From NCBI GenBank assembly GCA_964349525.1, contig CAYGGI010000001.1:1-51122 (forward strand): a stretch of DNA of 51,122 bases. The letters run 5' to 3'. This DNA is from an uncultured Candidatus Saccharibacteria bacterium (GTDB lineage Bacteria; Patescibacteriota; Minisyncoccia; Phycocordibacterales; PALSA-1337). Shown here in pieces: positions 15,644-51,122 of the stretch; the first letter of the stretch is position 1; the number at the start of each line of letters is the position of its first letter. Both the position numbers and the translations under genes were made by a program. The notes under the pieces were generated by a model. It had not been told where the DNA came from. It did no database searches and saw nothing but the letters and a program-made list of their open reading frames with translations.

Positions 15644-17371
15644 ATGAACGAAGAAAGGATCACATATTTCGCCGAAACCGACGCCCGAAATAAAAAGGTA
15701 AAATTTGGTATCAAGGCCAAGGATCGTACCCGCCATGTCTATGTCATTGGAAAAACTGGTATGGGAAAATCGACCCTGCTAGAGAACATGGCTGTGCAGG
15801 ATATTAAAAATGGGGAAGGTATCGCCTTCATCGACCCGCACGGCAAGACTGCTGATCTCCTCCTCGAATACATTCCACCGGAGCGTATCAAGGATGTCAT
15901 ATATTTCGCGCCCTTCGATACTGACTACCCGATTTCATTTAACGTCCTCGAGAGTGTCGATCCTGACAAGCGCCACCTCGTCGTCTCCGGACTCATGAGC
16001 ACCTTCAAGAAAATCTGGCAGGATGCCTGGTCCGCCCGCATGGAATATATTCTCACGAACACGCTCCTCGCGCTCCTCGAATATCCAGACGCTACGCTTC
16101 TCGGTGTTAACCGTATGTTGTCGGATAAAAAATTCAGAGAAAAAGTCGTAGCAAATGTGAGCGACCCGGCTGTCAAATCTTTTTGGGTTGAAGAATTCGC
16201 CCACTACACGGAGCGCATGGCGGCAGAGGCGGTTCCAGCGATCCAGAACAAGATCGGGCAATTCACTGCGAACGCGCTCATCAGGAACATGATCGGCCAG
16301 GCCAAGTCCTCTTTCAATATCCGTGAAGTCATGGATCAAAAGAAGATCATGATCATCAACCTTTCGAAGGGTCGCATCGGTGAAACAAATGCCAATCTTC
16401 TCGGAGGAATGCTCATTACGAAAATTTTTCTTGCCGCCCTTTCTCGCGCGGATGTGCCCGACCGCGTCTTGAAAGGTCTCCCGAACTTTTACCTGTTCGT
16501 TGACGAGTTCCAGTCGTTTGCCAATGAGTCATTTGCCGATATTCTCTCCGAGTCGCGCAAATACAAGCTCAACCTCACGATGGCGCACCAGTACATAGAA
16601 CAAATGGAAGAAGAGGTGCGCGCAGCGGTCTTCGGCAACGTCGGGACGATGATCGTCTTCCGTGTCGGAGCATATGACGCTGAGATTCTCGAAAAGGAAT
16701 TCGCGCCGCAGTTCACGGCCGAGGATATTGTAAATCTCGGGTTTGCTCAGATATATTTAAAACTTATGATCGATGGTATTGGCTCCGCACCATTTTCCGC
16801 AACAACTCTCGGCCCGATCCCTCAACCAGAAAAATCAAACATGCAGGAAGCTATGACAATGTCCCGAGCGCAGTTTGCTCATACTCGCGCTGAGGTAGAA
16901 AAAGCAATTGCCGAATGGCATGAGCCGGTAGCTCCACCTCCGCCACCGCCGAGACCAAAGCCACAGGTAGCTTCGCAACCGATGACGCAACCTGTTCATG
17001 TTGCACCAGCGCCCGTACTAATGCCAAAACCTCTTCCGAAACCATCTGCACCAGTTGTAACACCCATTCCCGTACCAACTCACAAACCCTTCGCCGCGCC
17101 ATTATCTGTTCCACTTTCAAATCTGGTTCAGAAACCGCAAACAAAAGTGAATTCAAAAGACGCGTCTCCAGAACGGGTCAATGAATTGCGGAATGCTCTC
17201 GCCTCTGTCCTCGGCTCAATGCCGAAAAAGCCTGCCGAAAAACCAGCACCAGCGCCTGCACCTCACTCCCAACCGGTTCCTCCCCAAGCTCCACCAGCAC
17301 CGAAACCTCCGCAAGATTCTACACAAGAAGTCTCCGAAGATGTACTGAAAAGCGTTCTTAAGGTAAAGTAA
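15644..17371 (+). CDS. VirD4/TraD-like (type IV coupling protein-like) P-loop ATPase without N-terminal TM segments, plus a proline-rich disordered tail of about 170 aa
   Basis: Walker A GKTGMGKST, Walker B-like FYLFVDEFQ and MAHQYIEQM. The tail is PVAPPPPPPRPKPQ...PAPAPAPHSQPVPPQAPPAPKPPQ. Confidence 0.7.
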   Translation: MNEERITYFAETDARNKKVKFGIKAKDRTRHVYVIGKTGMGKSTLLENMAVQDIKNGEGIAFIDPHGKTADLLLEYIPPERIKDVIYFAPFDTDYPISFNVLESVDPDKRHLVVSGLMSTFKKIWQDAWSARMEYILTNTLLALLEYPDATLLGVNRMLSDKKFREKVVANVSDPAVKSFWVEEFAHYTERMAAEAVPAIQNKIGQFTANALIRNMIGQAKSSFNIREVMDQKKIMIINLSKGRIGETNANLLGGMLITKIFLAALSRADVPDRVLKGLPNFYLFVDEFQSFANESFADILSESRKYKLNLTMAHQYIEQMEEEVRAAVFGNVGTMIVFRVGAYDAEILEKEFAPQFTAEDIVNLGFAQIYLKLMIDGIGSAPFSATTLGPIPQPEKSNMQEAMTMSRAQFAHTRAEVEKAIAEWHEPVAPPPPPPRPKPQVASQPMTQPVHVAPAPVLMPKPLPKPSAPVVTPIPVPTHKPFAAPLSVPLSNLVQKPQTKVNSKDASPERVNELRNALASVLGSMPKKPAEKPAPAPAPHSQPVPPQAPPAPKPPQDSTQEVSEDVLKSVLKVK

Positions 17372-17379
17372 TTAAAAAC

Positions 17380-18549
17380 ATGCCACGAAGAGCCCTCATA
17401 TTTTCATTAGCCTACTACCCCCACCTCGTAGGGGGAGCTGAGGTCGCCGTCAAAGAAATCACCGATAGAATAGGGTCGGAGGATATTGAGTTTGATATGG
17501 TTACGCTCTACGCTGGGGCTTCGAGATTCCAGCGCATCGGTAATGTCAATGTCTACCGTGTCGGTCCGAAGATTCGCATCATCGGAAATACCGTTCCCGC
17601 AATTTCATATTTGATAAAATTCCAGTATGTCGCATTCGCTTTTTTCAAAGCTCTTACACTCCACCATCGTCGTCATTACGACTTTACCTACTCTGTCATG
17701 GCGAGCTTCAACGCTTTTTCAAATTTATTTTTCAAATGGATTCATCCTAGAGTTCCCTTTTTCCTCAATCTTCAGGAAGGGGATTCACCGGAGCATATAA
17801 AGAAAGCGACTTCGATCATGTACCCGCTCTACCTGAAGATTTTTAAAAAAGCCGATCACATTCAGGCGATATCGAACTTTCTCGCTGATTATGCCAGAAA
17901 AATTGGGGCGACTTGCCCAATTTCTGTCATTCCGAACGGTGTTGATTTTAAATTCTTTTCTGTGCCCTCTCCGCAGAGTCAAATTAAAGCTCTTCTCCAT
18001 GAGCTCGAGATTGATCCCTTCGACACTGTTCTCATTACAACCTCACGCTTGGTGCAGAAAAATGGGGTAGGGGATATTATTGACTCGCTTGCTCATTTGC
18101 CTCCAACCGTCAAATTTCTCATCCTCGGCACCGGTCCCCTCGAAGAGATGTTGAAAGAAAAGACGAAGCTTTTGAAACTCGAAAGTCGCGTGCGTTTCGT
18201 CGGCTTTGTTCCGCATCGCGAGTTGCCGATATATCTCCAGGCTTCGAATATTTTCATCCGCCCCTCGCTCTCGGAAGGAATGGGAGTATCTTTTATCGAA
18301 GCCATGGCGGCGGGATTACCCGTGATCGCTACACCAGTTGGGGGAATTCCTGATTTCTTGACGGATGGTCAGACGGGGCTTTTTTGTAAAGTTGAAAATC
18401 CGGAAAGTATCGCGGAAAAAGTAGATGTTTTGATGAAAGACAAAGAGTTTCGAGAGTCCCTCGTGAAAAATGCAAAGGAAATGGTGAGGACGAAGTATGA
18501 TTGGGGATTGATTGCGGGGGAGATGAGAGGTGTTTTCGAGAGCCTTTAA
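17380..18549 (+). CDS. Glycosyltransferase, GT4 family (GT-B fold)
   Basis: EGMGVSFIEAMAAGLPVIATPVGGIPDF (E-x7-E region). 8-nt gap after the ATPase gene. Confidence 0.85.
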   Translation: MPRRALIFSLAYYPHLVGGAEVAVKEITDRIGSEDIEFDMVTLYAGASRFQRIGNVNVYRVGPKIRIIGNTVPAISYLIKFQYVAFAFFKALTLHHRRHYDFTYSVMASFNAFSNLFFKWIHPRVPFFLNLQEGDSPEHIKKATSIMYPLYLKIFKKADHIQAISNFLADYARKIGATCPISVIPNGVDFKFFSVPSPQSQIKALLHELEIDPFDTVLITTSRLVQKNGVGDIIDSLAHLPPTVKFLILGTGPLEEMLKEKTKLLKLESRVRFVGFVPHRELPIYLQASNIFIRPSLSEGMGVSFIEAMAAGLPVIATPVGGIPDFLTDGQTGLFCKVENPESIAEKVDVLMKDKEFRESLVKNAKEMVRTKYDWGLIAGEMRGVFESL

Positions 18550-18565
18550 TGCTAGACTTATCCCC

Positions 18566-19570
18566 ATGAATATCCTGATCGCTACCGGCATTTATCCACC
18601 CGCTCTCGGAGGACCGGCGCAATATGCCTATAACATGGGGATAGAGTGGGGAAAAGCTGGGCATAAGGTGGGGATAAAGACATATACTTTTGAACATAAG
18701 CTACCAAAGGTTATTTCCCATATGTGCTACTTTCTCAAGATTATTCCGGCAGTTATTTGGGCAGATTTCATTTATGGACTAGACACATCGGCAGTTGGTT
18801 TTCCTGCGGTGTTTGCATCAAAGATATTTGGTAAGAAGATAATCATCCGTACGGGAGGTGATAGATTGTGGGAAGAATATGTAGAAAGAACTCGCAAATT
18901 GGTACTTTTTAAAGATTTTTATGTAACGACGAGAAATAAATGGTCATTAAAAGACAGGGCTCTTTTCAAAGTAAGTCAGTGGACAATGCAGAATGTTTCC
19001 GCTCTCGTCTTTTCAACAGCGTGGCAGAGAGATATTTTTATTTCAGCATATGACCTCCCAAAGGATCACATACATGTTATCGAAAATTATTATGGACCAA
19101 AAGAAGAGTCTTTTGAACCGATACGCAAGGATTTCATCGCGGGAGCGCGACCATTGCAGTGGAAAAATATTCAGATATTGAAAGAAGTCTTTACTTCGCC
19201 AGAAATTATCGACGCTGGCGCGACCTATCACAAGGAAACCTGTCCGCACGGAGAATTTATGGACAAAATTGCTCATTCTTATGCTTCTCTCCTCGTTTCT
19301 CTCGGTGACATCAGTCCAAATATAATCCTCGATACGATTCGTCATAACAAACCATTCATAATTACCGAGGAAAACGGCCTTATGGATCGTATAAAAGACA
19401 TTGCCATTACTGTGAATCCAAAAGATCCAAAAGACATAAAAAATAAAATCCTCTGGCTCTGTAACAAAGAAAATTACGATGCGCAGGTGCAAAAGATCAA
19501 AAACTTTAATTTTACCCATACCTGGGAACAGATCGCGCGGGAAGTTATAGAACTCTACAAAAAACTATGA
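18566..19570 (+). CDS. Glycosyltransferase-like protein (GT-B, GT4-like N-terminus)
   Basis: MNILIATGIYPPALGGPAQYAYN is a typical GT4 N-terminal beta-strand plus glycine loop. ORF trimmed to ATG 18566. Confidence 0.6.
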   Translation: MNILIATGIYPPALGGPAQYAYNMGIEWGKAGHKVGIKTYTFEHKLPKVISHMCYFLKIIPAVIWADFIYGLDTSAVGFPAVFASKIFGKKIIIRTGGDRLWEEYVERTRKLVLFKDFYVTTRNKWSLKDRALFKVSQWTMQNVSALVFSTAWQRDIFISAYDLPKDHIHVIENYYGPKEESFEPIRKDFIAGARPLQWKNIQILKEVFTSPEIIDAGATYHKETCPHGEFMDKIAHSYASLLVSLGDISPNIILDTIRHNKPFIITEENGLMDRIKDIAITVNPKDPKDIKNKILWLCNKENYDAQVQKIKNFNFTHTWEQIAREVIELYKKL

Positions 19571-20550
19571 AATTATTAATGATCTCAACTGATAGGAATA
19601 TGTTTAATAAAACGAGCGCTGTGGCTCTGCGCCAGATTGAGTACGCAAAAAAGTATGAGGAAGTGCATATTATTATTTTCTCAGATAAAAGTTTTAAAGA
19701 AGCCACTCTTGGTTCAAATATTTTTATTTACCCCACTCGTTCCATTTCCCGCTGGTTCTATGTCTTTGATGCACTTCGACTCGGCAGATTCATCGTCGAG
19801 AAGAGAAAAATAGGCGATGTGACCTGCCAGGATCCCTTTGAAACCGGCCTTGTCGGCGCACTCATCAGGAATCGCGAGCCAGTCTCACTCGAACTACAAA
19901 TACACACCGATATTGGCAGTCCGTATTTCCAAAAGTTCACATTTCTCAATAGAATCCGCACGCTCATTTCAAAATACGCTTTACCCCGCGCCGACCATAT
20001 CCGTCTCGTTTCCTACCGCATCATGGAGTATATCCAGAGGTTCGCCGAACCGTCGCATATCGAGGTGAGACCTATCGTCGTGGATGTGGAGAGGATAAGG
20101 AATGCACAGGTTACCAACAGCTTATCCACAAGATACCCCCAGTTCTCAAAAATAATCCTTATGGTCTCCCGACTTGAGAAAGAAAAAAATATTGAGATGG
20201 CACTCGAAGCCTTCAGGCTCGTACTTGCGCAGATTCCTGGTACAGGACTGGTGATCGTGGGCACGGGAAGTGAAGAAAAGAATTTAAAAAATATGGCTGA
20301 AAAACTTGGTATCGAGAAATCGGTAATTTTCGAGGGTTGGCAGAACGATACCGCCTCATACTACAAGACTTGCAATATATTTCTCAACACCTCATGGTAC
20401 GAAGGCTACGGTATGACGCTCGTAGAAGCTCATGCCGCCGGCGCGAAAATCGTCTCGACTGATGTTGGAGTGGCAAGGGAAGTCGGAGCGAGCATAACAC
20501 ATTTTGATAAAAAAGAAATAGCAAAGGCGACCACAGAAGCGCTCGTATGA
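19567..20550 (+). CDS. Glycosyltransferase, GT4 family
   Basis: SWYEGYGMTLVEAHAAGAKIVSTDVG. ATGA overlaps at both ends. Confidence 0.8.
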   Translation: MKLLMISTDRNMFNKTSAVALRQIEYAKKYEEVHIIIFSDKSFKEATLGSNIFIYPTRSISRWFYVFDALRLGRFIVEKRKIGDVTCQDPFETGLVGALIRNREPVSLELQIHTDIGSPYFQKFTFLNRIRTLISKYALPRADHIRLVSYRIMEYIQRFAEPSHIEVRPIVVDVERIRNAQVTNSLSTRYPQFSKIILMVSRLEKEKNIEMALEAFRLVLAQIPGTGLVIVGTGSEEKNLKNMAEKLGIEKSVIFEGWQNDTASYYKTCNIFLNTSWYEGYGMTLVEAHAAGAKIVSTDVGVAREVGASITHFDKKEIAKATTEALV

Positions 20551-21251
20551 AAAATGTTGTCATAATTCCCACATACAATGAGAAAGAGAATATCGAGACG
20601 GTTATCTCGCGGATCTTTACTCTTGTCCCTGACATATCGGTCACTGTCGTGGATGATAATTCTCCTGACGGAACTGCGACTATTGTGGAATCTCTCATGA
20701 GGAAATATCCACAACTGGCCATAATAAAGAGGCAGAAGAAGGAAGGGCTCGGCAAGGCGTACATCTGCGCCTTCAGGAAGATTCTCGAAGATAACGATGT
20801 TCGTTCAATAATCATGATGGATGCTGATCTATCTCACGATCCCGCAGTCCTTCCGGAAATGCTCGCGTATTCCGAGGAGTATGATGTCGTCATTGGTTCT
20901 CGGTATGTGAGGAGTGGTGGCACCGAAGGATGGGAATTATGGAGACGAGGCTTGAGTTTTTTTGCCAATATATATTGCAGGATGATCACTCGGTTACCGG
21001 TATACGACTGCACGGGAGGCTATAATCTCGTAAGCGTCAGCCTTCTGCGCAAGATTGACTTCAGCACTATGGATTCTTCAGGCTATGCGTTTCAAATGGA
21101 ACTCAAGTTCATGTTGTGGAAAGCCGGCGCTCGATTCAAGGAAATTCCCATAATCTTCAAGAATCGCGCCAACGGAGAGTCGAAGATCTCGAGTCATATC
21201 ATCCTGGAAGGAGTCAGGGCGCCTTGGAATATGGTATATTATTCAGAATGA
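20547..21251 (+). CDS. GT2 polyprenyl-phosphate hexosyltransferase (Dpm1/Ppm1/GtrB-like)
   Basis: VIIPTYNEKENIE, VVDDNSPDGT, GLGKAY and MDADLSHDP. At 234 aa it is a soluble catalytic domain only. Confidence 0.8.
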   Translation: MKNVVIIPTYNEKENIETVISRIFTLVPDISVTVVDDNSPDGTATIVESLMRKYPQLAIIKRQKKEGLGKAYICAFRKILEDNDVRSIIMMDADLSHDPAVLPEMLAYSEEYDVVIGSRYVRSGGTEGWELWRRGLSFFANIYCRMITRLPVYDCTGGYNLVSVSLLRKIDFSTMDSSGYAFQMELKFMLWKAGARFKEIPIIFKNRANGESKISSHIILEGVRAPWNMVYYSE

Positions 21252-22699
21252 AATCTCTAACCACTATTTTCAAGACGACAATTTTTCGTTACGCGATGGC
21301 TGGAGGCACCGCGTCTCTCGTGGATGTCCTCTTATTCAATCTTCTCGTGTATAAGAGCAGTATTCATTATATCGCAGCCATAGTCGTCTCGAGCACCATT
21401 TCGTTTTTTCTCCGTTTCTTTCTGCAAAAGCGCGCATTCGGAGCTTCGTCAAGGACGGATACTCGTACCCAGTTCGTGTTGTACACAGCCCTTTTTGCAA
21501 TCAGTGTTGGTTTGACCGCCGCGCTCATGTATGTATTTGTTGATCTCGTCCATATCCAGAAGTCTATTGCTCAAATCATTTCCATTCTCCTCGTCGCCAT
21601 TTTCTGCTTTTTTACGTATCGACATGTCATTTTTCCCGCAGGCAGGGTGAAGAGTGGTCAAATCAAAAAACTTCTCATTATCACTCAAAAAGTGGATAGA
21701 GATGATCCCGTACTCGGATTCTTTCATAAGTGGGTTGAGGAAATGTCAAAAAAATTCGAGTCGATCATTGTTATCTGCCTCGAGAAAGGTCGGTCTGAGT
21801 TACCGGAAAATGTCAAGGTCTTGTCGCTCGGAAAAGAGGAGAGGCAGTCCCGCCTCCAGTACATCATCCACTTCTACTGGTATATCTTGAGTGAAAAGAA
21901 AAATTATGACGCGGTCTTCGTCCATATGAATCAACAGTATGTCGTTCTCGGCGCATGCGTCTGGAAGGCTCTCCATAAGAGCATCTATATGTGGCGCAAC
22001 CATGTCGCGGGGAGCCTGACAACGAAGCTCGCGGTTCGGCTGTGCGACAAAGTCTTCTGCACATCTGAATTTTCGTATACAGCAAGATACAAGAAGGCTG
22101 TTATTATGCCTGTGGGTGTCAACACGAATTTATTTAAAAAGGAATTAGAAACGACGAAAATTCCGAAGTCCATACTCTTTTTAAGCAGAATGGCGCCTAT
22201 CAAGAAACCTGACATGGTGATTGAAGCTTTCTCGGAAATGAAAAGCCGGGGCGTAGATTTCAGAGCTTCTTTTTATGGCGATCCTTCTCCTCGCGATGTG
22301 GCGTATTATGATACCCTCAAGAAGAAAATTGTCGAGAATGGCCTTTCGGAATCGGTGGCATTACATGCAGGAATTTCGAACAGCGAGACTGTCAGTGTCT
22401 ACAATAGTCACGAGATTTTCGTGAACCTTACACCGAGCGGATCCTACGACAAAACCATCTTTGAAGCTATGGCCTGCGAAACCCTTATCCTCGCTTCCAA
22501 CCGCAGCCTCTACGGTCTCGTGCACGAAGACTTTATTTTCAAAGAAGGAGACATCGCTGATCTCACGGGGAAACTCGAGAAACTTTTAACATTGAGTGTG
22601 GAGGAACGACTCGAGAGAGGCAAGGAACTTCGTGCGACGGTGGTGGAAAGCCATTCGCTCGAAAAGCTCATAGAAAAATTCTCAAAACACATCATATAA
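21248..22699 (+). CDS. Fusion: GtrA-like 4-TM domain + GT4 glycosyltransferase
   Basis: N-terminus FRYAMAGGTASLVDVLLFNLLVY...FFTYRHVIF is GtrA-like. C-terminus GSYDKTIFEAMACETLILASN is GT4. ORF trimmed to ATG 21248 (ATGA overlap). Confidence 0.75.
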   Translation: MKSLTTIFKTTIFRYAMAGGTASLVDVLLFNLLVYKSSIHYIAAIVVSSTISFFLRFFLQKRAFGASSRTDTRTQFVLYTALFAISVGLTAALMYVFVDLVHIQKSIAQIISILLVAIFCFFTYRHVIFPAGRVKSGQIKKLLIITQKVDRDDPVLGFFHKWVEEMSKKFESIIVICLEKGRSELPENVKVLSLGKEERQSRLQYIIHFYWYILSEKKNYDAVFVHMNQQYVVLGACVWKALHKSIYMWRNHVAGSLTTKLAVRLCDKVFCTSEFSYTARYKKAVIMPVGVNTNLFKKELETTKIPKSILFLSRMAPIKKPDMVIEAFSEMKSRGVDFRASFYGDPSPRDVAYYDTLKKKIVENGLSESVALHAGISNSETVSVYNSHEIFVNLTPSGSYDKTIFEAMACETLILASNRSLYGLVHEDFIFKEGDIADLTGKLEKLLTLSVEERLERGKELRATVVESHSLEKLIEKFSKHII

Positions 22700-27870: not shown

Positions 27871-27871
27871 T

Positions 27872-40521: not shown

Positions 40522-40536
40522 ATAATTATTTTTTCT

Positions 40537-41415: not shown

Positions 41416-41416
41416 T

Positions 41417-42719: not shown

Positions 42720-42725
42720 ACTAAG

Positions 42726-42751
42726 AAGCGTAGCATTTTCATGCTACGCTT
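42726..42751 (-). terminator. Strong hairpin between the Nudix and cytidylyltransferase genes (terminator or processing/attenuation site)
   Basis: 11-bp perfect stem AAGCGTAGCAT / ATGCTACGCTT with a 4-nt loop. There is no long U-run on the minus strand, so function is uncertain. Confidence 0.35.
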
Positions 42752-42772
42752 TCAATGAGGAGAATACTTCGG

Positions 42773-43333
42773 TCAAATCTGGACTCGTTCTCGTAGGTGA
42801 GGCAGAGCCAAGAGAGTCAGGACTGCACTCTTGCTGTCAAGCTTGGTGTCTGGGTCGAAAATCATCTCACACCACTCCTCCCACGGGAGAATGGTGACTT
42901 CAATAATCTCGTTTCGGTCGAGTTCTGGTTCTTTTTCCTTGATGCAGTCGAGAGCGAGGTACGCTGTGAAAGTGACCCGCAAGCTTGGCGGATCGATCCA
43001 GCAAGCTTGCTTCAGAAGGATGAGCGTCTTTGGTCTGTAGCCCGTCTCCTCGAGGAGCTCTCGGATTATTGCTTTTTCGGGATCTTCATCCAGCTCTGCA
43101 TGTCCGCCTGGCAGTTCCACGATATAGTCATTAGCCGCAAATCTAAATTGGCGAAGAGTGACTACTTGGTTCTCGAGGGTAAGCGGGAGAATGACAACAG
43201 GACTTCCATGTTTTGATTTGAGGACAAAGAACTCCTCTTTTTCCCCGTTGGGAAGTGTGAAATCCTGGAGGATGACTTGTCGACCGTAGGATTCTAGGAG
43301 CAGATGCTCCTCACCGGCAATTGGTCTGTTCAT
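42773..43333 (-). CDS. Nudix hydrolase
   Basis: Nudix box PGGHAELDEDPEKAIIRELLEETG. ORF trimmed to ATG 43333. Confidence 0.85.
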   Translation of the reverse strand: MNRPIAGEEHLLLESYGRQVILQDFTLPNGEKEEFFVLKSKHGSPVVILPLTLENQVVTLRQFRFAANDYIVELPGGHAELDEDPEKAIIRELLEETGYRPKTLILLKQACWIDPPSLRVTFTAYLALDCIKEKEPELDRNEIIEVTILPWEEWCEMIFDPDTKLDSKSAVLTLLALPHLRERVQI

Positions 43334-43472
43334 AATGATACCTTTCTCAGGTAAACATACATTATTTGTTAGTATTGTCAATCTCAAGTAAATAGTCTAT
43401 AGTGAACCCAGATTGAAAACCGTTTTTTGATCTTTGATTTGAACTTCTGAGAACCCTCTAACTAAGGAATCT

Positions 43473-45296
43473 ATGCAAACCATTTCGGTGCCTCTTACAC
43501 CTGCCGAGATCACCCTTACGGGGAAGATCGGACAGAAGGTGAAAAGACTATTTCCTAAGGGGTGTGAACGAATCCTTTTGATTCACATTCCTCAAGTCGA
43601 CAAGGAGAATTTCGATCTGGCAACGGCCAGAGCCGGAAGATATCCTTGTTTTCCGCCCTATGGGCCTGGACTCCTGTCCCGCAACCTGCGTACTGCTGGT
43701 TATACTACCAAGCTTATCGACCTCAACTACGAGATCCTATTTCATGTTGCTGACAGGATGTTCGACTACAGTCTCTGGGAAAAGGTCTTGGATGAAGTGA
43801 TGGAGAGCTTCCAGCCGAGCTTAGTGGCAGTGAGTTGTATGTTTTCAGCGACCCATGGGTCCATGAAAATGGTGACAGACTATCTCAAGGAGCATTTTCC
43901 ACAGATACCTATTGTTGCTGGGGGGGTTCACCCCTCAAACAATGTACGAGGTGTCTTGCAGGATGTTCCTAGCATCGACATCGTCATTGCCTACGAGGCA
44001 GACAAAGCCTTCACAACCTTCGTGGATTTTGTGAACAACAAAACCACGGCAGATCGTATCACCCAAACTGCGCTTCTCGAAGATGGAGAGTTCTTGTACA
44101 TGGAACGGCGCGCCGTTCCTGCGGAGGACGAGGTCAACTTTTCCCCCGACTACGACCTCCTTCCTATCGGGGACTATGGCAAACGAGGTGAGATCGGTGT
44201 CTATAGCTGGCTTCGAGGCACGCCTCCACGAAGTACCATCCTCGCCAATCGAGGTTGTCGCGCGCGCTGCACCTTCTGTTCAGTGAACAGTTTCAACGGA
44301 AATGGGGTGCGAAGCCGCGATCATAAGTTTGTTGCTGATGAGATGCAGCGCCAAGTCGAGAAATACAAAGTCGAACACTTCATGTGGCTTGATGATGATC
44401 TCTTTCGGCCTGACTGTGTCGACCTCTTCAGTGAGATTACTTCTCGGGGACTCAACGTTACCTGGGATGCGTCGAATGGTGTTATCGCTTCGGCTACAAC
44501 TCCCGCAGTCTTGCGGGCAGCCAGGGATTCTGGATGTATCGGACTTAGCTTCGGCATAGAGTCCGGTGATCCTGAGATCCTACGTTCGGTCAAAAAACCG
44601 AGTACGGTCAAGCATTTCCGGGCTCTCGGCGGAATGCTGAAAGAACACCCGACGATCTTTACGAAAGGATTCCTCATGGTGGGGTTTCCTGACGAGACTA
44701 TCGAAAAGATCTGGAACACGATCAACCTCGCGCTTGAAATGGCTCTCGACTGGTATCCGATCCAAATCCTCATGCCGTTCGGTGGCACGGAGATGGCAAA
44801 GAAACTTATCGAACGAGGTGTTACCGATGAGCACACAGTGCTCTCCTCCAAGATGCAGATCGGTCCTGCTGGCGCCATACGCCTCAAGGAACGCCGAGAA
44901 GATGCAGTAAGTACCTTCAATCCCGATGTTCTCGATCAGTCGAGAGCTGATAGGATACCAGCTCGCGAGGAGTTGCCGGACATTTGGTTCCTAATGGACT
45001 ACATGGTGAACTATCGACGCATCAATGATGAGAGTGACCCTGTCAGACTGAGGATGAAAGCTCTCAACCTACAGAACATTCTCGACCGGATCCCTCGGCA
45101 CGTCGCCCTAGCGTCTCTCTACCTCGGGGTCATCAACCAGAAACTTGGAAACTTCGAAGCTGCCTCAAGCAACTTTGAAGCAACTGAGCGGTATCTGGAA
45201 GAGTCGGCCTTCTGGCGGCTTAGGTTCGAGAAACTCGGCTTGAACGAGTTTCTTGCAAAGCGGCGGAGCAATGAAAGTTCCTTCGCAGTTTTATAA
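43473..45296 (+). CDS. B12-binding-domain radical SAM enzyme (class B-like) with a helical-repeat C-terminal extension
   Basis: CxxxCxxC motif NRGCRARCTFCSV. The N-terminal Rossmann-like domain reads LIHIPQ...VAVSCMFSATHGS...PIVAGGVHPS. The C-terminal 120 aa or so are helical (ALASLYLGVINQKLGNFEAASSNFEATERYLEE). Confidence 0.8.
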   Translation: MQTISVPLTPAEITLTGKIGQKVKRLFPKGCERILLIHIPQVDKENFDLATARAGRYPCFPPYGPGLLSRNLRTAGYTTKLIDLNYEILFHVADRMFDYSLWEKVLDEVMESFQPSLVAVSCMFSATHGSMKMVTDYLKEHFPQIPIVAGGVHPSNNVRGVLQDVPSIDIVIAYEADKAFTTFVDFVNNKTTADRITQTALLEDGEFLYMERRAVPAEDEVNFSPDYDLLPIGDYGKRGEIGVYSWLRGTPPRSTILANRGCRARCTFCSVNSFNGNGVRSRDHKFVADEMQRQVEKYKVEHFMWLDDDLFRPDCVDLFSEITSRGLNVTWDASNGVIASATTPAVLRAARDSGCIGLSFGIESGDPEILRSVKKPSTVKHFRALGGMLKEHPTIFTKGFLMVGFPDETIEKIWNTINLALEMALDWYPIQILMPFGGTEMAKKLIERGVTDEHTVLSSKMQIGPAGAIRLKERREDAVSTFNPDVLDQSRADRIPAREELPDIWFLMDYMVNYRRINDESDPVRLRMKALNLQNILDRIPRHVALASLYLGVINQKLGNFEAASSNFEATERYLEESAFWRLRFEKLGLNEFLAKRRSNESSFAVL

Positions 45297-45375: not shown

Positions 45376-46227
45376 TTAACTTACGAGATCGTCGATACCC
45401 TTCGGATAGACAGGATTCTGGTCTTTGACTCTCCACATGTATAACGGTATAGAGATTATATGACTATTTTTAAAAGTTTCCGCAACTTGAAAATTAAAAT
45501 CTTTATCCGCACCTCTTCCCATAAACGATGGCCAGACTCGGTCTTTCAACTTTCTGAACTTTACTTTTTCGATGACTTCTCGTCCGAACAGAGGAGAATT
45601 GCCGGCTCCGGGATAATTTTCGAGGGAGCCAAAAAAGAATTTATTTAGAACCCGTCTTCTCTTTATGTGAAAGGGAATAAGTGCATTGAGCCCACGAGAA
45701 ATCTTTGCGACGAATCCTTTTGACCTTTGAGACATCTCATATATTTCTTTTGGTTCCGTGACTACGAGCTTATTTTCAAATGCTTCCATGTCCAATTTTT
45801 TTCCAAGGTGTGCTGGATTAAATTGAACCCAATCCATTGTCAGATGAGTAGAGTCGTATTTCGATAGGAGCTTATACTGGACTTCGATACGGTTCAGTAG
45901 GGAAGCGTCATCGGCGTCTTGGAAGGTTAGGTATTCTCCTCTGGCATTTTCAAAACCGGTATTTCGAGCAGAATAACCTGCATTTACATTTCGATTCAGT
46001 ATCTTATCGAAACGCTCGGGGTCGTCTTTTCCTTCGACGAGCTTGATTCTCGAATCAAGTTTTACCAGGTTCTCCACCGCCACTTTTGTACCATCAGTAC
46101 TTTTGTCATTCACGACGATAATTTCAAGATTGCGATAGGTCTGATCGAGGATTGACTGGATGGCGATGGCAATCGTTTTTTCACAATTATAGACAGGGAT
46201 GATGACGCTTATGAGAGGATGGTTCAT
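45376..46227 (-). CDS. Glycosyltransferase, GT2 family
   Basis: ISVIIPVYNCEKTI, IVVNDKSTDGT and LTFQDADD. Confidence 0.85.
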   Translation of the reverse strand: MNHPLISVIIPVYNCEKTIAIAIQSILDQTYRNLEIIVVNDKSTDGTKVAVENLVKLDSRIKLVEGKDDPERFDKILNRNVNAGYSARNTGFENARGEYLTFQDADDASLLNRIEVQYKLLSKYDSTHLTMDWVQFNPAHLGKKLDMEAFENKLVVTEPKEIYEMSQRSKGFVAKISRGLNALIPFHIKRRRVLNKFFFGSLENYPGAGNSPLFGREVIEKVKFRKLKDRVWPSFMGRGADKDFNFQVAETFKNSHIISIPLYMWRVKDQNPVYPKGIDDLVS

Positions 46228-47375
46228 ATTTTTAATATTTCCGTGATAAAACGATCATAGGCTTTTCTAAATTCATTTCGAGTGTAACGTCTTCGTGCAT
46301 AGTTCCAGATACTTCGAGATTTCCCTTTTATTTTTTCTGCAGGTTCTGTCTGAAACTTACACACAGTTTCCATGATGGATTCAGGAGTAGGATCGATAAG
46401 AGGAATGTATCCCGAGTCTTCCTGTATGCCCGTTTCGTGGCTTATAATAGGGATTATTCCAGCATGCATTGCCTGTACTATAGCTCCAGAGGAACCTTCC
46501 CCCCCAGATGGGTATATGACAGCAGAGCACGTATTTAAAATATTTTTAAATTTTTCGTGAGCAACATCAAGTCTTCCGTAGACGTGGATATTGGGAGTTT
46601 CTTCCAACTCCTTTTTATATTCTTTGACGAAATCTTTTTCTCCGTATAGTGGTCCGCAAATATGCAGATGTGTATCCGGCATTTTACTGAATGCTTCGAG
46701 GGTTATATCGAGTCCCTTTAAGACTGCTCCGCCACCACCTATCCACATAAAGTGTTTCCTTGACTTCTCAAAATCTTTATTTTTTGGGAAATCATACTGG
46801 ATTACGGTAGAAATAGGAATAAAGGTAATTGGCTTATGAAATTGCTCAAAGGTTTTAAATATTGTTTTGTTACCGAATCCTTCGAGGTAATCCGCAAGTT
46901 CAGCATCACGAGAAGGTTTTACAGAACGATGAGGAGAGAGCCGTATACCACGTCTTTTTTTGAGAGCGTCGAGACGCTTTGCTTCAGCATCATTATAGGC
47001 TTTCCAATAGGAAATAAGGATATGAAATACTTTTTTACAATTTTGAGGAAGGTATTTCAAAAGTCTTTCGAGATCGTCATCTGAGTCTATGCAAACCACG
47101 TATTTTTTTTTCGGAATGAAAATATGATCTTTAGAATTGATGATATCTACCTCGAATCCTTTTTCAGAAAAGAGTCGAGCTATTTCGTAACATTCCCAAT
47201 ACATGGTGTGATAGTTGGGGAAAGGTCTCCAAGGTGCAAAGGTAAATGGCTCGGTAAAATAAGAAAGAAGTACTGCACCTTTTTTTCGTCCTTGTGCTGG
47301 CATGTGAACTCTCCCCCATAACTTGTTGGTGATTTTGTTCTTGTACGCCCAATAGGTTTTTGTTATTTTATTCAT
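46224..47375 (-). CDS. Glycosyltransferase, GT4-like (GT-B fold)
   Basis: PSGGEGSSGAIVQAMHAGIIPIISHETG. Start set at ATG 47375 (8-nt overlap with the asnB stop); TTG 47396 is an alternative. Confidence 0.7.
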   Translation of the reverse strand: MNKITKTYWAYKNKITNKLWGRVHMPAQGRKKGAVLLSYFTEPFTFAPWRPFPNYHTMYWECYEIARLFSEKGFEVDIINSKDHIFIPKKKYVVCIDSDDDLERLLKYLPQNCKKVFHILISYWKAYNDAEAKRLDALKKRRGIRLSPHRSVKPSRDAELADYLEGFGNKTIFKTFEQFHKPITFIPISTVIQYDFPKNKDFEKSRKHFMWIGGGGAVLKGLDITLEAFSKMPDTHLHICGPLYGEKDFVKEYKKELEETPNIHVYGRLDVAHEKFKNILNTCSAVIYPSGGEGSSGAIVQAMHAGIIPIISHETGIQEDSGYIPLIDPTPESIMETVCKFQTEPAEKIKGKSRSIWNYARRRYTRNEFRKAYDRFITEILKI

Positions 47376-49122
47376 GGTCTTTGTAGTGAAGTTCAAACCA
47401 AATGCCGAGACACAGTATCGACCATATTTTTCGTATTGAAGATTTTGTATACCTGTCTTTTTTTTCTATGATCTTTCGCACAGTTTCTCGGTCGAGGTAT
47501 TTGTACATCGGATGGGCATTGTCAGTAAGAATCTTATGGATCTCATCCTGCAACACCTTTTCTTTAAGCCAATCTACTATCGGAGCTCCAAAACCTTGTT
47601 TTCTTCGATATACAAAATCTTTCGGCATAATTTCTGAAAGAATATCCTTCAAGATTATTTTATTTTCTGTCTTATTTATTTTGAATTTCCAAGGAAGATT
47701 GTATACAAATTCTACGAGCGCTGTATCTAAAAAAGGTGAGCGAACCTCGAGAGAATGCATCATGCTGGTTCTGTCAATCTTCGTTAGGAGTTGTCCAGGA
47801 AGGTAGATCTTGAGATCGTATCTATTTATCTTATCAAAGGAATCGACAGCACCACTGGTTGCGAGGGATTCAAATTCATCCTCTATAAGAGTTCTCTTTT
47901 TTATAAGGACTGCACGTTCTTTTCTATCAAATACTTCCACCATTTTTCTATATGAAGAGAATGGATTTTCGAAGATTTTTTTGTAGAGCGGGGTATTCCA
48001 GTATTTTTGATACCAACCATATCCCATAAAGAGCTCGTCTGCTCCATCACCAGAAAGAGCGACTTTGACCTTGGTCGAAGCTAGCTTCGATATGAGATGC
48101 TGGGGAAAGTTTGAAGAATCTGCATGCGGTTCGTCGAAGTATTCTATCACGTTTCTCAATTCTTCTATATCACTTGCTTGTGCAGTCAGAGTGAAGTGGT
48201 CAGTGCCTATCTTCTTTGAAGCTTCGAGTGCAAAGGGAAGCTCATTTACCCCTTTGTCATATCCCACTGCGAATGTTTTTATAGGATGAGAGGCATACTT
48301 TTGTGCATACAGAGTGACGAGGGTTGAATCGATACCTCCTGAAAGCAGTGACCCTATTTCCACATCTGCAACCATTCTTTTCTGTACAGCAAGATCAAAA
48401 AGTTTTTTTATGGTTTTTTTTGCTTCCACGAAGGAAATAGAAACCTCCTTTTTCTCTAGATCCCAATATTTCCTCATCCGTATATTTCCATCTTTTATAG
48501 TGGCTACATGAGCAGGGGGGAGGACATGAATGTTGGAGTAAATACTTTTGTTGGGTGGAATATATGAAAGTCGTAGGTAATCCTCAAGGGCTCCCGGATC
48601 TATTTTACCCTTTATTTTTCCGGTGGCAAAAAGAGCTTTTATTTCAGATGCGCCGAAGAACGTTTTGTCTATGAAGGTATAGTAAAAAGGTTTCTTTCCA
48701 AATCTATCGCGCGCGATAAAGAGTTCTTTTTTTATATCATCCCATAGTGCGAATACGAACATCCCGTCGAGTTGATCGAGACATGCATCACCGTATTCTG
48801 CATATGCCTTCAATATAACTTCAGTATCGGATTGCGTGCTGAAGCTGTGCCCGAGAAGCTCAAGCCTCCCCCTCAAATCCTTGTACCCATACATCTCCCC
48901 GTTGAAGACGATAGTATACGGATTCTTGGTATCTTTCATTGGCTGGTGCCCACCACCTATGTCCACAATAGAAAGCCGAGTTTGCCCGATGATCGCTCGA
49001 TCCTCTCTCACAAAACCCTTATCATCTGGACCGCGTTTCGACAATGTCGAAAGCATGGCGTCTATGCGACCATTCTCTATGGTGCCTGCGTTATTTCCCG
49101 TTATGGCTATAATTCCACACAT
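47368..49122 (-). CDS. asnB: Asparagine synthetase B-type glutamine amidotransferase
   Basis: N-terminal nucleophile MCGIIAI and PP-loop LLSGGIDSTLV; 584 aa. Confidence 0.9.
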   Translation of the reverse strand: MCGIIAITGNNAGTIENGRIDAMLSTLSKRGPDDKGFVREDRAIIGQTRLSIVDIGGGHQPMKDTKNPYTIVFNGEMYGYKDLRGRLELLGHSFSTQSDTEVILKAYAEYGDACLDQLDGMFVFALWDDIKKELFIARDRFGKKPFYYTFIDKTFFGASEIKALFATGKIKGKIDPGALEDYLRLSYIPPNKSIYSNIHVLPPAHVATIKDGNIRMRKYWDLEKKEVSISFVEAKKTIKKLFDLAVQKRMVADVEIGSLLSGGIDSTLVTLYAQKYASHPIKTFAVGYDKGVNELPFALEASKKIGTDHFTLTAQASDIEELRNVIEYFDEPHADSSNFPQHLISKLASTKVKVALSGDGADELFMGYGWYQKYWNTPLYKKIFENPFSSYRKMVEVFDRKERAVLIKKRTLIEDEFESLATSGAVDSFDKINRYDLKIYLPGQLLTKIDRTSMMHSLEVRSPFLDTALVEFVYNLPWKFKINKTENKIILKDILSEIMPKDFVYRRKQGFGAPIVDWLKEKVLQDEIHKILTDNAHPMYKYLDRETVRKIIEKKDRYTKSSIRKIWSILCLGIWFELHYKDHE

Positions 49123-49134
49123 GACATCACTATA

Positions 49135-50043
49135 CTATAGTTTCACCCAATTTTCAGGTAGAAGGTCTCTCGTGTCGTTTTTGGGTGCGTTGGCAAACCA
49201 TTTTTTTGGTGCGATAACAATCTTGTCCTTGTTCGGATTAAGCCATGCACCCCACCAGCTGAAACTGCTGTTCGCTATGATGTGATGCCTGCACTCTGAC
49301 ATAAGGATCATATCCTCATAATTTTTTTCAATTCCATTTTTTACACAAGTATAAGGATGCTCGAGCCATTTGAAATTTTCGACCACCCATTCATAATCAT
49401 CTGAAAATATAAAGAAATGAGGCGAAGGGACTTTTTCTGAAATTAGAAGGACGGCAGCTTTGTAGTATTCGAGAGAGCATGAGCCGTGAAAAGCGCTGAT
49501 GACAGGATCGGATACAAAGACTGTGCGGCGCACATGGAGAGAAACAGCATTGGTTTTACGAATGGTGTCACTGATACTCTGGCTATAAGCCTCAAAAGGT
49601 TTTACGAGTGTCACCTCTTTTCGTATCTCATCCCCGATTTCTTCGAAATATTTTCCCGTCTGCCAGAAACCATCGAAGTACACCGAACCTTTTTTTGTAA
49701 AGACTTCTGGATCGAAAGCAAAAGTCTTTTCTATAAAATAAAATGGCAGGAAGAAACGTCGGAGACGCAAGCGCGCATACAGTCTGTTGAAAAAGGCGTA
49801 GTGTCTGCGAACGGCGACAAAACCAAGCATATCCGAGCCTTTTGCAAAAGTGATTTTAGTATTGAAATGATGGAGATAGTATTCTGGTATGAGGGTACCT
49901 GGAGGCCAGTACTCAAGCTTTGGATCAAAGGCCGCACTATCGAGAAGGAACGTGGTATTCATGCGCTTCGCAACCGCTCGGGCAAAGGCGTATTGAAAAA
50001 GTTGATTTCCTAGACCTCCGACAGTTTTGACGATTATTGGCAT
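49135..50043 (-). CDS. GT11-family glycosyltransferase (alpha-1,2-fucosyltransferase-like)
   Basis: VGGLGNQLFQYAFARA, SLHVRR and ANSSFSWWGAWLN. Confidence 0.8.
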   Translation of the reverse strand: MPIIVKTVGGLGNQLFQYAFARAVAKRMNTTFLLDSAAFDPKLEYWPPGTLIPEYYLHHFNTKITFAKGSDMLGFVAVRRHYAFFNRLYARLRLRRFFLPFYFIEKTFAFDPEVFTKKGSVYFDGFWQTGKYFEEIGDEIRKEVTLVKPFEAYSQSISDTIRKTNAVSLHVRRTVFVSDPVISAFHGSCSLEYYKAAVLLISEKVPSPHFFIFSDDYEWVVENFKWLEHPYTCVKNGIEKNYEDMILMSECRHHIIANSSFSWWGAWLNPNKDKIVIAPKKWFANAPKNDTRDLLPENWVKL

Positions 50044-50050
50044 TGTAGTT

Positions 50051-50674
50051 CTATGGATAAATGGGTGTTCGGGGGTAAATTCTTAAGTTATCATTCTTCA
50101 TTTCAAATAAATAACCATAGCGACATGCAAGTTTTTCGATCGCTGCTACGGTCGGATACCCACCTCTACCAGTGAAATCTCTCGCATCATCGATGAGGAT
50201 AACATGATTCTTTATAGAGTGCTGTAGCAAAGCTTCAAGTTCTGATTCGATGGGAGTAATGACGGATCCTCTGGCGGTATCGCCTCCAGAATCATGCGCA
50301 TCCAGCCAGAATATAGCTGGTTCATGCAAGTCTCTCAAAACTTGTGGAAGAACAGCCGCACTGTCACCATGAAGAAGGTGTATGTGCTTATCTCCACGGA
50401 ATCGCTCGCATGCCTTAGTATAGAGATCATCTCCAAGCTCTATCGAATATATCCTCTTGAATCGTGTTTTCATCGCCTCCACCATGTCCCCATGATAGGT
50501 TCCTGTCTCTATAAAAGTGTCATATTTGAAACGTCTTTTGAAACCCATAATAGAATCTTCCCGCGCCTTCTGGAGTTTCCAGAACTTTCTGCGTGTAAGA
50601 AAAGCCATGAGAGGTGCATGAAGACCGACTGCTTGAAGAATTTTTTTTGCGATCGAACGTGGTGTGATTTTCAT
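50051..50674 (-). CDS. Putative SAM-dependent methyltransferase-like protein (family unresolved), tandem paralogue A
   Basis: ETGTYHGDM (glycine-rich motif I-like), IFWLDAHDSGGDTA and HVILIDDARDF. Clearly homologous to the next gene. Confidence 0.5.
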   Translation of the reverse strand: MKITPRSIAKKILQAVGLHAPLMAFLTRRKFWKLQKAREDSIMGFKRRFKYDTFIETGTYHGDMVEAMKTRFKRIYSIELGDDLYTKACERFRGDKHIHLLHGDSAAVLPQVLRDLHEPAIFWLDAHDSGGDTARGSVITPIESELEALLQHSIKNHVILIDDARDFTGRGGYPTVAAIEKLACRYGYLFEMKNDNLRIYPRTPIYP

Positions 50675-50675
50675 A

Positions 50676-51122
50676 TTATGTTTTGGGATAAATTCTAAAA
50701 ATATTTTCTACCATATCAAATGAATAATTATTTTCCCGTGCGAGTCTCTCCACTGATGTTGCCGTGGGATATTCATATTTGGGATCAAAGTCGCCCGCAT
50801 CATCTATTAAAATAACATGATTTTTTATCGGGTGTGCGAAGATAGCTCGTATCTCTCGCTCGATAGGTGTATTGGTTTCTCCTCGAGCCGTCTCTCCTCC
50901 CGAGTAGTGGGCATCGAGCCAGAAAATAGCGGGTTCATCTATTTCTGTCAAGATTTTGGGCAATTCGACGGCGCTATCACCATGGAGCAATCTTATGTGG
51001 GAATATTTTCCAAATTTCTCGCGTGCTCTCTCGTAGAGCACATCAGCAAGTTCTATCGAATATATTTTCTTGAACTTTTTTCTCATTGCCTCCACCATTT
51101 CTCCTCTGAACGTTCCTGTCTC
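50676..51122 (-). CDS. Tandem paralogue B of the methyltransferase-like protein; 5' end runs off the window
   Basis: The frame stays open to 51122 (ETGTFRGEMVEAMRKK...). IFWLDAHYSGGETA and HVILIDDAGDF. The stop lies 1 nt from the start of paralogue A. Confidence 0.5.
   Translation of the reverse strand, partial: ETGTFRGEMVEAMRKKFKKIYSIELADVLYERAREKFGKYSHIRLLHGDSAVELPKILTEIDEPAIFWLDAHYSGGETARGETNTPIEREIRAIFAHPIKNHVILIDDAGDFDPKYEYPTATSVERLARENNYSFDMVENIFRIYPKT

Follow-up and report, generated by a model that had tools for sequence, protein, structure and literature searches.

Composition and extent of the locus

The window analysed here is a stretch of 51,122 bp that corresponds to the entire contig CAYGGI010000001.1, and from position 17380 to its end (51122) it contains an unbroken series of 32 genes that are glycan-related or unassigned. 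The intergenic gaps in this series are of 85 bp or less, and many neighbouring genes overlap by 4 bp. With an extension obtained from an overlapping contig, the full locus spans approximately 42 kb and has peptidoglycan genes on both sides (MraY and Mur ligases upstream, MurB downstream); as detailed below, the extension contains the genes for an ATP-binding cassette (ABC) exporter of the Wzm/Wzt type. For these assignments, every long open reading frame (ORF) of the window was scanned against Pfam and selected ORFs also against NCBIfam, and membrane segments were called by a hydropathy scan.

Since the window is a whole contig, its end is an assembly break. Contig L001 (ENA ERZ27247820, 12.8 kb), one of four other contigs containing the exact sequence of the GT11 protein encoded near that end, overlaps positions 47583-51122 of the window with 100% identity over 3,540 bp, and continues for a further 8.9 kb. 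Likewise, L003, from a Logan assembly of a different run, is identical to L001 (100%) along 3,796 bp, of which 256 are beyond the end of the window; the final 41 bases of the window had no exact match in metagenome contigs from the Joint Genome Institute. The L001 extension was also scanned with Pfam and NCBIfam models and its positions converted to window-equivalent coordinates (w = 60044 minus the L001 position), which places the following genes past the contig end:

to w51275, minus strand: rest of the 199-aa methyltransferase gene that is cut by the window end
w51303-52355, minus strand: GT-B-like glycosyltransferase
w52370-53632 (L001 6412-7674), minus strand: Wzt (ABC_tran, 78.5 bits; Wzt_C, 40.3 bits, cutoff 30.4, residues 276-392)
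w53653-54474 (L001 5570-6391), minus strand: Wzm (ABC2_membrane, 58.7 bits, cutoff 26.9)
w54481-56535, minus strand: two extended sugar-nucleotide short-chain dehydrogenases/reductases (SDRs), one of them GDP-fucose-synthase (Fcl)-like
w56591-57076, plus strand: second RfaE/TagD-like nucleotidyltransferase
w57097-59301, plus strand: 734-aa protein with a Wzy_C domain (59.9 bits, cutoff 31.7) and tetratricopeptide repeats (TPR)
from w59557, plus strand: MurB, reaching the end of L001

Gene wzt begins 1.25 kb past position 51122, wzm and wzt together span from 1.25 to 3.4 kb past the contig end, and the window genes from 45376 to 51122 share with them a single minus-strand operon. The best PDB match of the Wzt from L001 was the O-antigen Wzt of Aquifex aeolicus (8dku / 7k2t; E 7e-64), with an alignment that extends past the ATPase domain to residue 374, while the galactan Wzm model matched the L001 Wzm with an E of 7e-20, below its cutoff. 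A preliminary description, made from the window only, had presented the island as devoid of export machinery and as not matching the ABC route; it had itself named a canonical exporter together with an initiating transferase immediately beyond 51122 as an observation that would overturn this claim, and L001 supplies the exporter.

Inside the island, as that description stated, family scans retrieved no Wzx, Wzy, Wzz, Wzm/Wzt or WbaP/WecA. Additionally, Polysacc_synt, MurJ and Wzz had no match in the window or in L001 with Pfam and NCBIfam models, so that a Wzx/Wzy-dependent pathway is not represented there, and none of the four GT2 enzymes of the island has a TM segment, whereas a synthase-dependent pathway would use a processive GT2 fused to a multi-helix membrane channel. 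The genes of the island are listed below in window coordinates, with the models matched and their scores in bits (TM, transmembrane; SAM, S-adenosylmethionine):

17380-18549, plus strand: GT4 glycosyltransferase (Glycos_transf_1, 138.8)
18530-19570, plus strand: GT-B/GT4-like, weak assignment (Glyco_transf_4, 23.8, below cutoff; no NCBIfam match)
19567-20550, plus strand: GT4 glycosyltransferase (Glycos_transf_1, 107)
20547-21251, plus strand: small soluble GT2, polyprenyl-phosphate sugar synthase-like, 234 aa (Glycos_transf_2, 104)
21248-22699, plus strand: GtrA-domain/GT4 fusion, ~4 TM segments (GtrA_DPMS_TM, 53.9, cutoff 26.1; Glycos_transf_1, 48)
22702-24510, plus strand: GT4/SAM-methyltransferase fusion (Glyco_trans_1_4, 56; MTS, 30.8, residues 439-595)
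24514-25656, plus strand: GT4 glycosyltransferase (Glycos_transf_1, 86.5)
25669-27870, plus strand: GT-C (PMT_2/ArnT-like) and SAM-methyltransferase fusion (PMT_2, 41.2, cutoff 26.1; Methyltransf_11, 49.5)
27854-28567, plus strand: second small soluble GT2, polyprenyl-phosphate sugar synthase-like, 237 aa (Glycos_transf_2, 94.6)
28613-30145, minus strand: B12-binding radical SAM enzyme (Radical_SAM, 88.6; B12-binding, 57.2; no NCBIfam equivalog reached)
30218-31000, minus strand: class I SAM methyltransferase (Methyltransf_11, 31.6)
31013-31816, minus strand: FkbM-family methyltransferase (Methyltransf_21, 72.6; TIGR01444 above cutoff)
31817-32647, plus strand: class I SAM methyltransferase (Methyltransf_25, 59.7; Methyltransf_31, 57.9)
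32652-33557, minus strand: unassigned 301-aa protein, possibly GT11-like (no Pfam or NCBIfam match)
33554-34966, minus strand: nucleotide-sugar 6-dehydrogenase (UDPG_MGDP_dh N, central and C domains; TIGR03026, 294, cutoff 190)
34890-35675, minus strand: SAM methyltransferase (DUF268, 43.5; Methyltransf_11, 28.9)
35680-36744, plus strand: extended SDR epimerase/dehydratase (Epimerase, 139.5; GalE and RmlB models ~110, below cutoff)
36750-37823, plus strand: extended SDR epimerase/dehydratase (Epimerase, 125; RmlB model 137, below cutoff)
37815-38789, minus strand: unassigned 324-aa protein with GT-A-like motifs (no match to hidden Markov models, HMMs)
38798-39685, minus strand: GT2 glycosyltransferase, no TM segment (Glycos_transf_2, 54.8; Glyco_trans_2_3, 32.8)
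39760-40521, plus strand: split transketolase, N-terminal half binding thiamine diphosphate (Transketolase_N, 142.9)
40537-41415, plus strand: split transketolase, pyrimidine-binding and C-terminal half (Transket_pyr, 71.7)
41417-42238, plus strand: classical SDR ketoreductase (adh_short_C2, 176.8)
42222-42719, minus strand: sugar-phosphate nucleotidyltransferase, RfaE domain II/TagD-like (CTP_transf_like, 58.3; rfaE_dom_II, 82.7, below cutoff)
42773-43387, minus strand: Nudix hydrolase (NUDIX, 55)
43473-45296, plus strand: second B12-binding radical SAM enzyme (Radical_SAM, 65.2; B12-binding, 50.7)
45376-46227, minus strand: GT2 glycosyltransferase, last gene of the wzm/wzt operon (Glycos_transf_2, 98.2)
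46224-47396, minus strand: GT4 glycosyltransferase (Glycos_transf_1, 42.3)
47368-49122, minus strand: AsnB-type glutamine amidotransferase (Asn_synthase, 303.8; TIGR01536 above cutoff; best match an exopolysaccharide-associated amidotransferase)
49135-50043, minus strand: GT11-family, alpha-1,2-fucosyltransferase-like (Glyco_transf_11, 105)
50051-50674, minus strand: class I SAM methyltransferase without a Pfam model (AlphaFold2 model and Foldseek)
50676-51122, minus strand: paralogue of the preceding methyltransferase (53% identity), cut by the contig end; complete, with 199 aa, in L001 8769-9368

The inventory given in the preliminary description was largely accurate. Its approximately 15 glycosyltransferase domains nearly match our count, which comprises six firm GT4 (17380, 19567, 24514, 46224 and the fusions at 21248 and 22702) and a weak one (18530), four GT2 (20547, 27854, 38798 and 45376), one firm GT11 (49135) and a marginal one, one GT-C (25669, PMT_2) and one possibly GT-A-like protein. 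The scans also confirmed the two B12-radical SAM enzymes, three SDRs, 6-dehydrogenase, AsnB, split transketolase, nucleotidyltransferase and Nudix hydrolase, and its count of at least eight SAM-methyltransferase domains agrees with the eight that we found, using Pfam or, for 50051 and 50676, AlphaFold2 and Foldseek. Its claim that all genes from 17380 onwards are dedicated to glycans holds for the uninterrupted run of 32 genes, although those at 32652 and 37815 lack an HMM assignment. Conversely, its starting point at 15644 has to be moved: the gene at 15644-17371, between the peptidoglycan genes and the island, is not a glycan gene and codes for a TrwB/VirD4/TraG/HerA-like P-loop ATPase of 575 aa with no TM segments. 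Its supposition of a host with a reduced genome agrees with the presence in the window of a gene for a DUF5671 protein, and with the homologues found, all of them from metagenome-assembled genomes (MAGs) of Patescibacteria/Paceibacteria.

A homologue of the ATPase, with 42% identity, is found ~7 kb downstream of murB in L080, one of the related loci described below. Just upstream of the island, positions 14020-15219 encode a putative glycoside hydrolase (DUF4015, 330.8 bits) with an N-terminal hydrophobic segment, which could process an extracellular glycan. Within the island, the divergent gene pairs at 35675/35680 and 31816/31817 are only 0-4 bp apart and leave no space for a promoter; either their start codons are mis-set or their promoters are inside the neighbouring genes.

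Glycosyltransferases, methyltransferases and sugar-tailoring enzymes

As already pointed out in the preliminary description, the GtrA and GT-C fusions are the only polytopic proteins of the island in the hydropathy scan. Each of them is adjacent to a small GT2, and none of the four GT2 proteins has a TM segment. The best NCBIfam matches of GT2 20547 were AglJ (59.5 bits), dolichyl-phosphate (Dol-P)-hexose transferase, ArnC and PpgS, all of them below cutoff; GT2 27854 matched AglJ with 106.9 bits, and also PpgS, ArnC and Dol-P-hexose transferase, likewise below the equivalog cutoffs. After revising the start of the GtrA-GT4 gene to the ATG at 21248, the stop codon of GT2 20547 overlaps this start codon as ATGA (21248-21251), suggesting translational coupling, and GT2 27854 is located directly 3' of the GT-C gene 25669. 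The GtrA domain of 21248 may be a lipid-linked sugar flippase, a membrane partner of the upstream GT2, like GacJ for GacI, or both. The GT-C fusion shows ~11-13 hydrophobic segments, with the methyltransferase domain at residues ~546-646 followed by two segments within 668-709; the helices on both sides of this domain imply that it is cytoplasmic and held between membrane helices. Both fusions, GtrA-GT4 and GT-C-methyltransferase, are unusual architectures.

Published three-component systems combine proteins of the GT-A, GtrA and GT-C types, and act outside the membrane to decorate O-antigens, teichoic acids and polysaccharides of the wall (PMC8035078). These systems are a recognised route for the export and transfer of lipid-linked sugars, and their variants include soluble GT-A enzymes with a small membrane partner (PMC8035078). 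Judging from their domains, the two small GT2s, the GtrA domain and the GT-C of the window appear to match this type of extracytoplasmic glycosylation.

The two proteins without HMM assignment could only be placed provisionally. The protein from 32652-33557 showed a marginal local BLASTP match, restricted to the C-terminal motif of GT11 (E 0.04), and its homologues adjoin wzt in related loci L028 and L065. The product of 37815-38789 did not show a BLASTP match with GT11, and may be GT-A-like according to motifs read by eye (ISFVATARNDD, TNPD and GDFLLMHRNLWNTVRGYDE).

The eight SAM-methyltransferase domains are found at the C-termini of 22702 and 25669 and in genes 30218, 31013, 31817, 34890, 50051 and 50676. 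In the FkbM-family gene, the domain occupies only residues 219-376 of a mechanically defined 422-aa minus-strand ORF that runs to 32281; its likely start is the Met codon at 31816 or 31780, and homologues align over only ~230 aa. The plus-strand methyltransferase gene at 31817-32647 lies under the resulting spurious N-terminal extension, and would be missed by automatic gene calling based on the longest ORF.

An AlphaFold2 model of the product of 50051-50674, built from 40 homologues, reached a mean predicted local distance difference test score (pLDDT) of 89.4, and all its top Foldseek matches in the PDB were class I SAM methyltransferases (E 1e-7 to 1e-5). We retrieved 5,205 homologues of this protein, nearly all of them without a Pfam domain; the few with a named source are from Patescibacteria or unclassified MAGs. 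As predicted from the structural model, these paralogues belong to a widespread methyltransferase family that falls outside current domain models. They are also the two genes adjoining the GT-wzt-wzm group, and 50051-50674 is a candidate for a terminal-capping enzyme, as is the GT4-methyltransferase fusion 22702, from its domain composition, for a chain modifier or terminator. The known capping enzyme WbdD caps the O9a chain with methyl phosphate (PMC3482155, PMC7685785), but neither the 50051/50676 paralogues nor the 22702 fusion show similarity to it.

Other enzymes of the island probably act on donor sugars. The domain assignments suggest that the dehydrogenase 33554-34966 probably makes a uronic acid that AsnB (47368-49122) would amidate, and that the B12-radical SAM enzyme 28613-30145 is probably a methyltransferase. 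The SDR 41417, the transketolase pair and the radical SAM enzyme are conserved as a block in related locus L014 (2707-7136; 49-74% identity). In the window, this module (39760-45296) also includes the nucleotidyltransferase and the Nudix hydrolase.

The Wzy_C-TPR protein, related loci and the initiating transferase

When the Wzy_C-TPR protein was searched against the representative genomes of GTDB, 363 relatives were obtained, of which we retained 80 (41-66% identity). Their loci (L005-L084; 1.34 Mb) are from MAGs of Patescibacteria (Paceibacterota, Taylorbacteria, Parcubacteria and similar) or of unclassified uncultured bacteria. Gene murB is found 3' of the Wzy_C-TPR gene in 54 of the 80 loci. 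Wzm/Wzt immediately precede the Wzy_C-TPR gene in 28 of these loci, and a MOP/Wzx flippase (confirmed as PF01943 in one representative) occupies that position in another 21. No locus contained both; neither was found within at least 5 kb in 15 loci, and the flanks were too short in the remaining 16. It seems that the export cassette is exchanged at one constant site beside murB.

Genes from the island recur among relatives as shuffled blocks, including those formed by the two transketolase halves, SDR and radical SAM, by GT2, GT4 and AsnB, and by GT11 and a methyltransferase. The GT2-GT4-AsnB block adjoins wzt in L076, L028 and L065. L014, which shares the GT-wzt-wzm order with the extended window, contains (49-88% identity) a glycosyltransferase, Wzt, Wzm, the two transketolase halves, SDR, radical SAM, GT11, a methyltransferase, SDR, Wzy_C and MurB, in this order. 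The behaviour of the locus is that of hypervariable loci of the O-antigen kind, with conserved flanks as anchors.

Given that the Wzy_C-TPR gene is maintained whichever exporter is present, its product is likelier to function as a ligase or oligosaccharyltransferase than as a polymerase. The protein has ~12 hydrophobic segments, and residues R222, R299 and H349 are invariant in all 21 aligned homologues; 20 of the 21 also contain the sequence H[NSQ]x9Gxx[GTY], which we take to be the motif of O-antigen ligases. The two arginines and the histidine are at nearly the same positions as functionally important residues of PglL (R224, R298 and H349) and WaaL (R215, R288 and H338) (PMC3643930), as matched by position and Pfam domain and not by direct alignment. 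In a literature search on glycan loci or O-antigen ligases of the Candidate Phyla Radiation we found nothing specific.

The absence of an initiating transferase at the locus, in the window plus L001, is the one part of the missing machinery of the preliminary description that was upheld. Profile scans of the window proteins and L001 did not show any match to Bac_transf. When the window, L001 and the 80 loci were translated in all six frames, no locus contained more than one WbaP/PglC motif, and the sole motif match in the window falls in a non-coding frame. Likewise, tblastn with MraY against the 1.34 Mb of related loci gave no match. However, the E. coli gene for WecA belongs to the cluster for enterobacterial common antigen (ECA), outside the O-antigen locus, also for O-antigens of the ABC pathway (PMC7685785), and the lack of an initiator within the cluster is therefore not anomalous.

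The PF00953 protein encoded at 9647-10774 was considered as a WecA-type initiator and rejected, because it scores 166 bits with the MraY model TIGR00445 against 38 bits with the WecA model and is located among Mur ligases; its grouping with MurD and another Mur ligase assigns it to peptidoglycan synthesis. This MraY homologue (375 aa) does not reach the TIGR00445 cutoff of 192 bits and matches the model in two stretches, with its Pfam domain spanning only residues 161-298; from its sequence it appears divergent, perhaps containing an insertion.

Proposed assembly pathway and comparison with known systems

Together, these results lead us to propose, with a probability of about three in four, that this is a ~42-kb surface-glycan locus of Patescibacteria (Paceibacteria-type) that is mainly of the classical ABC-transporter-dependent class, with a parallel three-component decoration. 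On the cytoplasmic side of the membrane, soluble GT4, GT2 and GT11 enzymes would assemble the polymer with polyprenyl diphosphate as its carrier, starting from a primer made by an initiating phosphoglycosyltransferase encoded elsewhere in the genome. Among the donors, the 6-dehydrogenase and AsnB would yield an amidated uronic acid, and the extended SDRs would supply epimerised or 6-deoxy sugars, in keeping with the presence of GT11 and of a Fcl-like SDR; another donor sugar would be tailored by the module of transketolase, ketoreductase, nucleotidyltransferase, Nudix hydrolase and B12-radical SAM enzyme. The eight methyltransferases could introduce extensive O- or C-methylation. The carbohydrate-binding domain of Wzt is described as recognising a modified chain terminus (PMC9445017). 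Similarly, Wzt_C would here read the modified chain end, coupling termination to export as happens in known systems (PMC9445017, PMC3482155), and the likeliest source of the cap would be methylation by one of the methyltransferases adjoining wzt. Wzm/Wzt, whose genes are present and whose activity is predicted, would export the finished chain, and the Wzy_C-TPR protein would transfer it to an acceptor, probably a surface protein or a wall or lipid component. In parallel, the small GT2s would make polyprenyl-phosphate monosaccharides, GtrA would flip them or anchor the GT2, and GT-C would add the monosaccharides as side chains to the polymer outside the membrane.

Several points weigh against this proposal. 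Neither the exporter nor the ligase is encoded on the contig of the window itself, and the link to them is through further assemblies, derived from this population or from one nearly identical to it. Searches of the window plus L001 (~60 kb) and of the 80 related loci (1.34 Mb) did not retrieve any enzyme of the WbaP/PglC or WecA/TagO type, and lipid carrier and linkage type are therefore assumptions. Among the sugar-nucleotide enzymes, only the generic dehydrogenase and AsnB reach equivalog cutoffs in NCBIfam, so the chemistry of the glycan is speculative and we do not assign any sugar. Both small GT2s are devoid of the membrane helices present at the C-terminus of GtrB- and ArnC-type enzymes. 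In sequence and profile searches, the Wzy_C part of the Wzy_C-TPR protein did not match any solved structure, including WaaL and PglL, and only the TPR part did. Additionally, the genes of the island may serve the synthesis of more than a single polymer.

A broader interpretation, which we consider possible but unlikely, is that the locus exemplifies a so far undescribed conjugation system found throughout the Paceibacteria. Here, the Wzy_C-TPR protein beside murB would take glycans from either a Wzm/Wzt or a Wzx cassette and link these chains, hypervariable and rich in methyl groups, to the wall or to proteins of the surface, for instance pilins or S-layer proteins, with initiation possibly occurring without a canonical phosphoglycosyltransferase, given that none of the 80 loci showed one.

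The locus could also direct the synthesis of a teichoic-acid-like wall polymer, in which a TagGH-type transporter exports a polyol- or glycosyl-phosphate chain made from cytidine diphosphate (CDP) precursors for attachment to peptidoglycan by an LCP (LytR_cpsA_psr) protein. Indeed, among NCBIfam models the ATPase domain of Wzt scores highest with the ATPase of the teichoic-acid exporter (PRK13545, 206 bits), the TarH and TagH structures match Wzt with E 1e-54, there are two TagD/RfaE-like nucleotidyltransferases, and the locus is among peptidoglycan genes of a host that presumably has a single membrane. Nevertheless, all scores with teichoic-acid models are far below their cutoffs, and the ~60 kb scanned do not contain a TagF/TagB glycerophosphotransferase (Glyphos_transf), TagO/WecA or an LCP protein. 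As Wzt also possesses a Wzt_C domain and has an O-antigen Wzt as its nearest structure, and the conserved partner is a ligase-like Wzy_C protein and not an LCP protein, we consider this polymer improbable.

To a similar degree, we doubt that synthesis is initiated in the archaeal style, with an AglJ-like GT2 acting on polyprenyl monophosphate, extension by GT4 enzymes and transfer of the oligosaccharide by GT-C outside the membrane. Both small GT2s have AglJ, the initiator of S-layer N-glycosylation, as their top match in NCBIfam, a GT4 carries a fused membrane domain of the GtrA/DPMS type, and none of the 80 relatives has a phosphoglycosyltransferase at the locus. The AglJ scores (59.5 and 106.9 bits) do not, however, come close to the cutoff of 325, and both GT2s also match synthases of monosaccharide donors, namely ArnC, PpgS and Dol-P-hexose synthases. 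Moreover, to our knowledge, the characterised Wzm/Wzt and Wzy_C systems all use diphosphate-linked glycans. The initiator may also lie elsewhere in the genome, as does wecA in E. coli (PMC7685785).

Finally, a new assembly route without a classical exporter, with export and transfer carried out by the GtrA and GT-C fusions alone, is very improbable: while no Wzx, Wzy, Wzm/Wzt or phosphoglycosyltransferase family was detected in the window and the island has only two polytopic proteins, the window end is the contig end, after which wzt and wzm, in the same minus-strand operon, and the Wzy_C gene follow in the contig that overlaps it with 100% identity, and relatives such as L014 have the same GT-wzt-wzm arrangement.

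The locus is a large but ordinary ABC-dependent surface-glycan locus, and the striking claim initially made about it is an artefact produced by a contig edge in a fragmented assembly; when machinery seems to be missing at the edge of a metagenomic contig, overlapping assemblies need to be consulted before claiming anything unusual. The ~42 kb devoted to one hypervariable surface-glycan locus represent ~5% of a genome sized like the 876-kb chromosome of a relative. The swapping of export cassettes and enzyme modules around a fixed Wzy_C-TPR gene is the pattern of O-antigen and capsule loci under diversifying selection driven by phages or hosts, and in these episymbionts the attachment to hosts and the resistance to phages may plausibly depend on surface glycans. 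Experimental work has so far not addressed glycosylation in Patescibacteria (PMC11623550). Features of moderate interest include the lineage-conserved Wzy_C-TPR gene by murB, the alternation of ABC and Wzx exporters, the fusions, the heavy methylation and an initiator that was not located.

As in GtrABC, CsbB-GtcA-YfhO, GtlA-GtcA-GtlB and GacI/J/K/L, a GT-A similar to polyprenyl-phosphate-sugar synthases, a GtrA-family domain and a PMT_2-type GT-C are encoded together here. The soluble GT2s of the island differ from GtrB and are closer to GacI; unlike in the three-component systems, GtrA is fused to a GT4, and the GT-C carries a SAM-methyltransferase domain and two later hydrophobic segments. 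The Wzy_C-TPR protein resembles WaaL and PglL in being polytopic, with a Wzy_C domain and the invariant Arg/Arg/His residues, but has a C-terminal TPR domain of ~250 aa and its gene is kept beside murB in a lineage presumed to be single-membrane.

The overall organisation is like that of ABC-dependent O-polysaccharide loci, such as those of E. coli O8/O9a, Klebsiella and A. aeolicus, which share with it a Wzm, a Wzt whose C-terminal domain binds carbohydrate, a set of GT4 and GT2 enzymes in the cytoplasm, methyltransferases by wzt, the absence of Wzx, Wzy polymerase and Wzz, an initiator outside the cluster, and a Wzy_C-family ligase, putative in our locus, downstream in the pathway. In contrast, our locus is two to four times larger, has eight methyltransferases and two B12-radical SAM enzymes, and encodes at the locus itself a ligase-like protein with a TPR domain. 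Furthermore, its host, a Patescibacterium, presumably has neither outer membrane nor lipopolysaccharide, and lipid A-core is therefore excluded as the acceptor.

The slg cluster of Geobacillus stearothermophilus NRS 2004/3a differs from this locus in having its own WbaP-like initiator and a full rml set; we know of no close sequence relationship detectable between the two, nor of an S-layer protein or acceptor here. Nonetheless, the two resemble each other in a single membrane, presumed for our host, in ABC-dependent assembly, in a methyltransferase-glycosyltransferase enzyme that caps the chain in slg and for which the fusion at 22702 is a candidate counterpart, and in a Wzy_C-type oligosaccharyl:protein transferase that acts on a surface protein in slg, as the Wzy_C-TPR protein may do in our locus.

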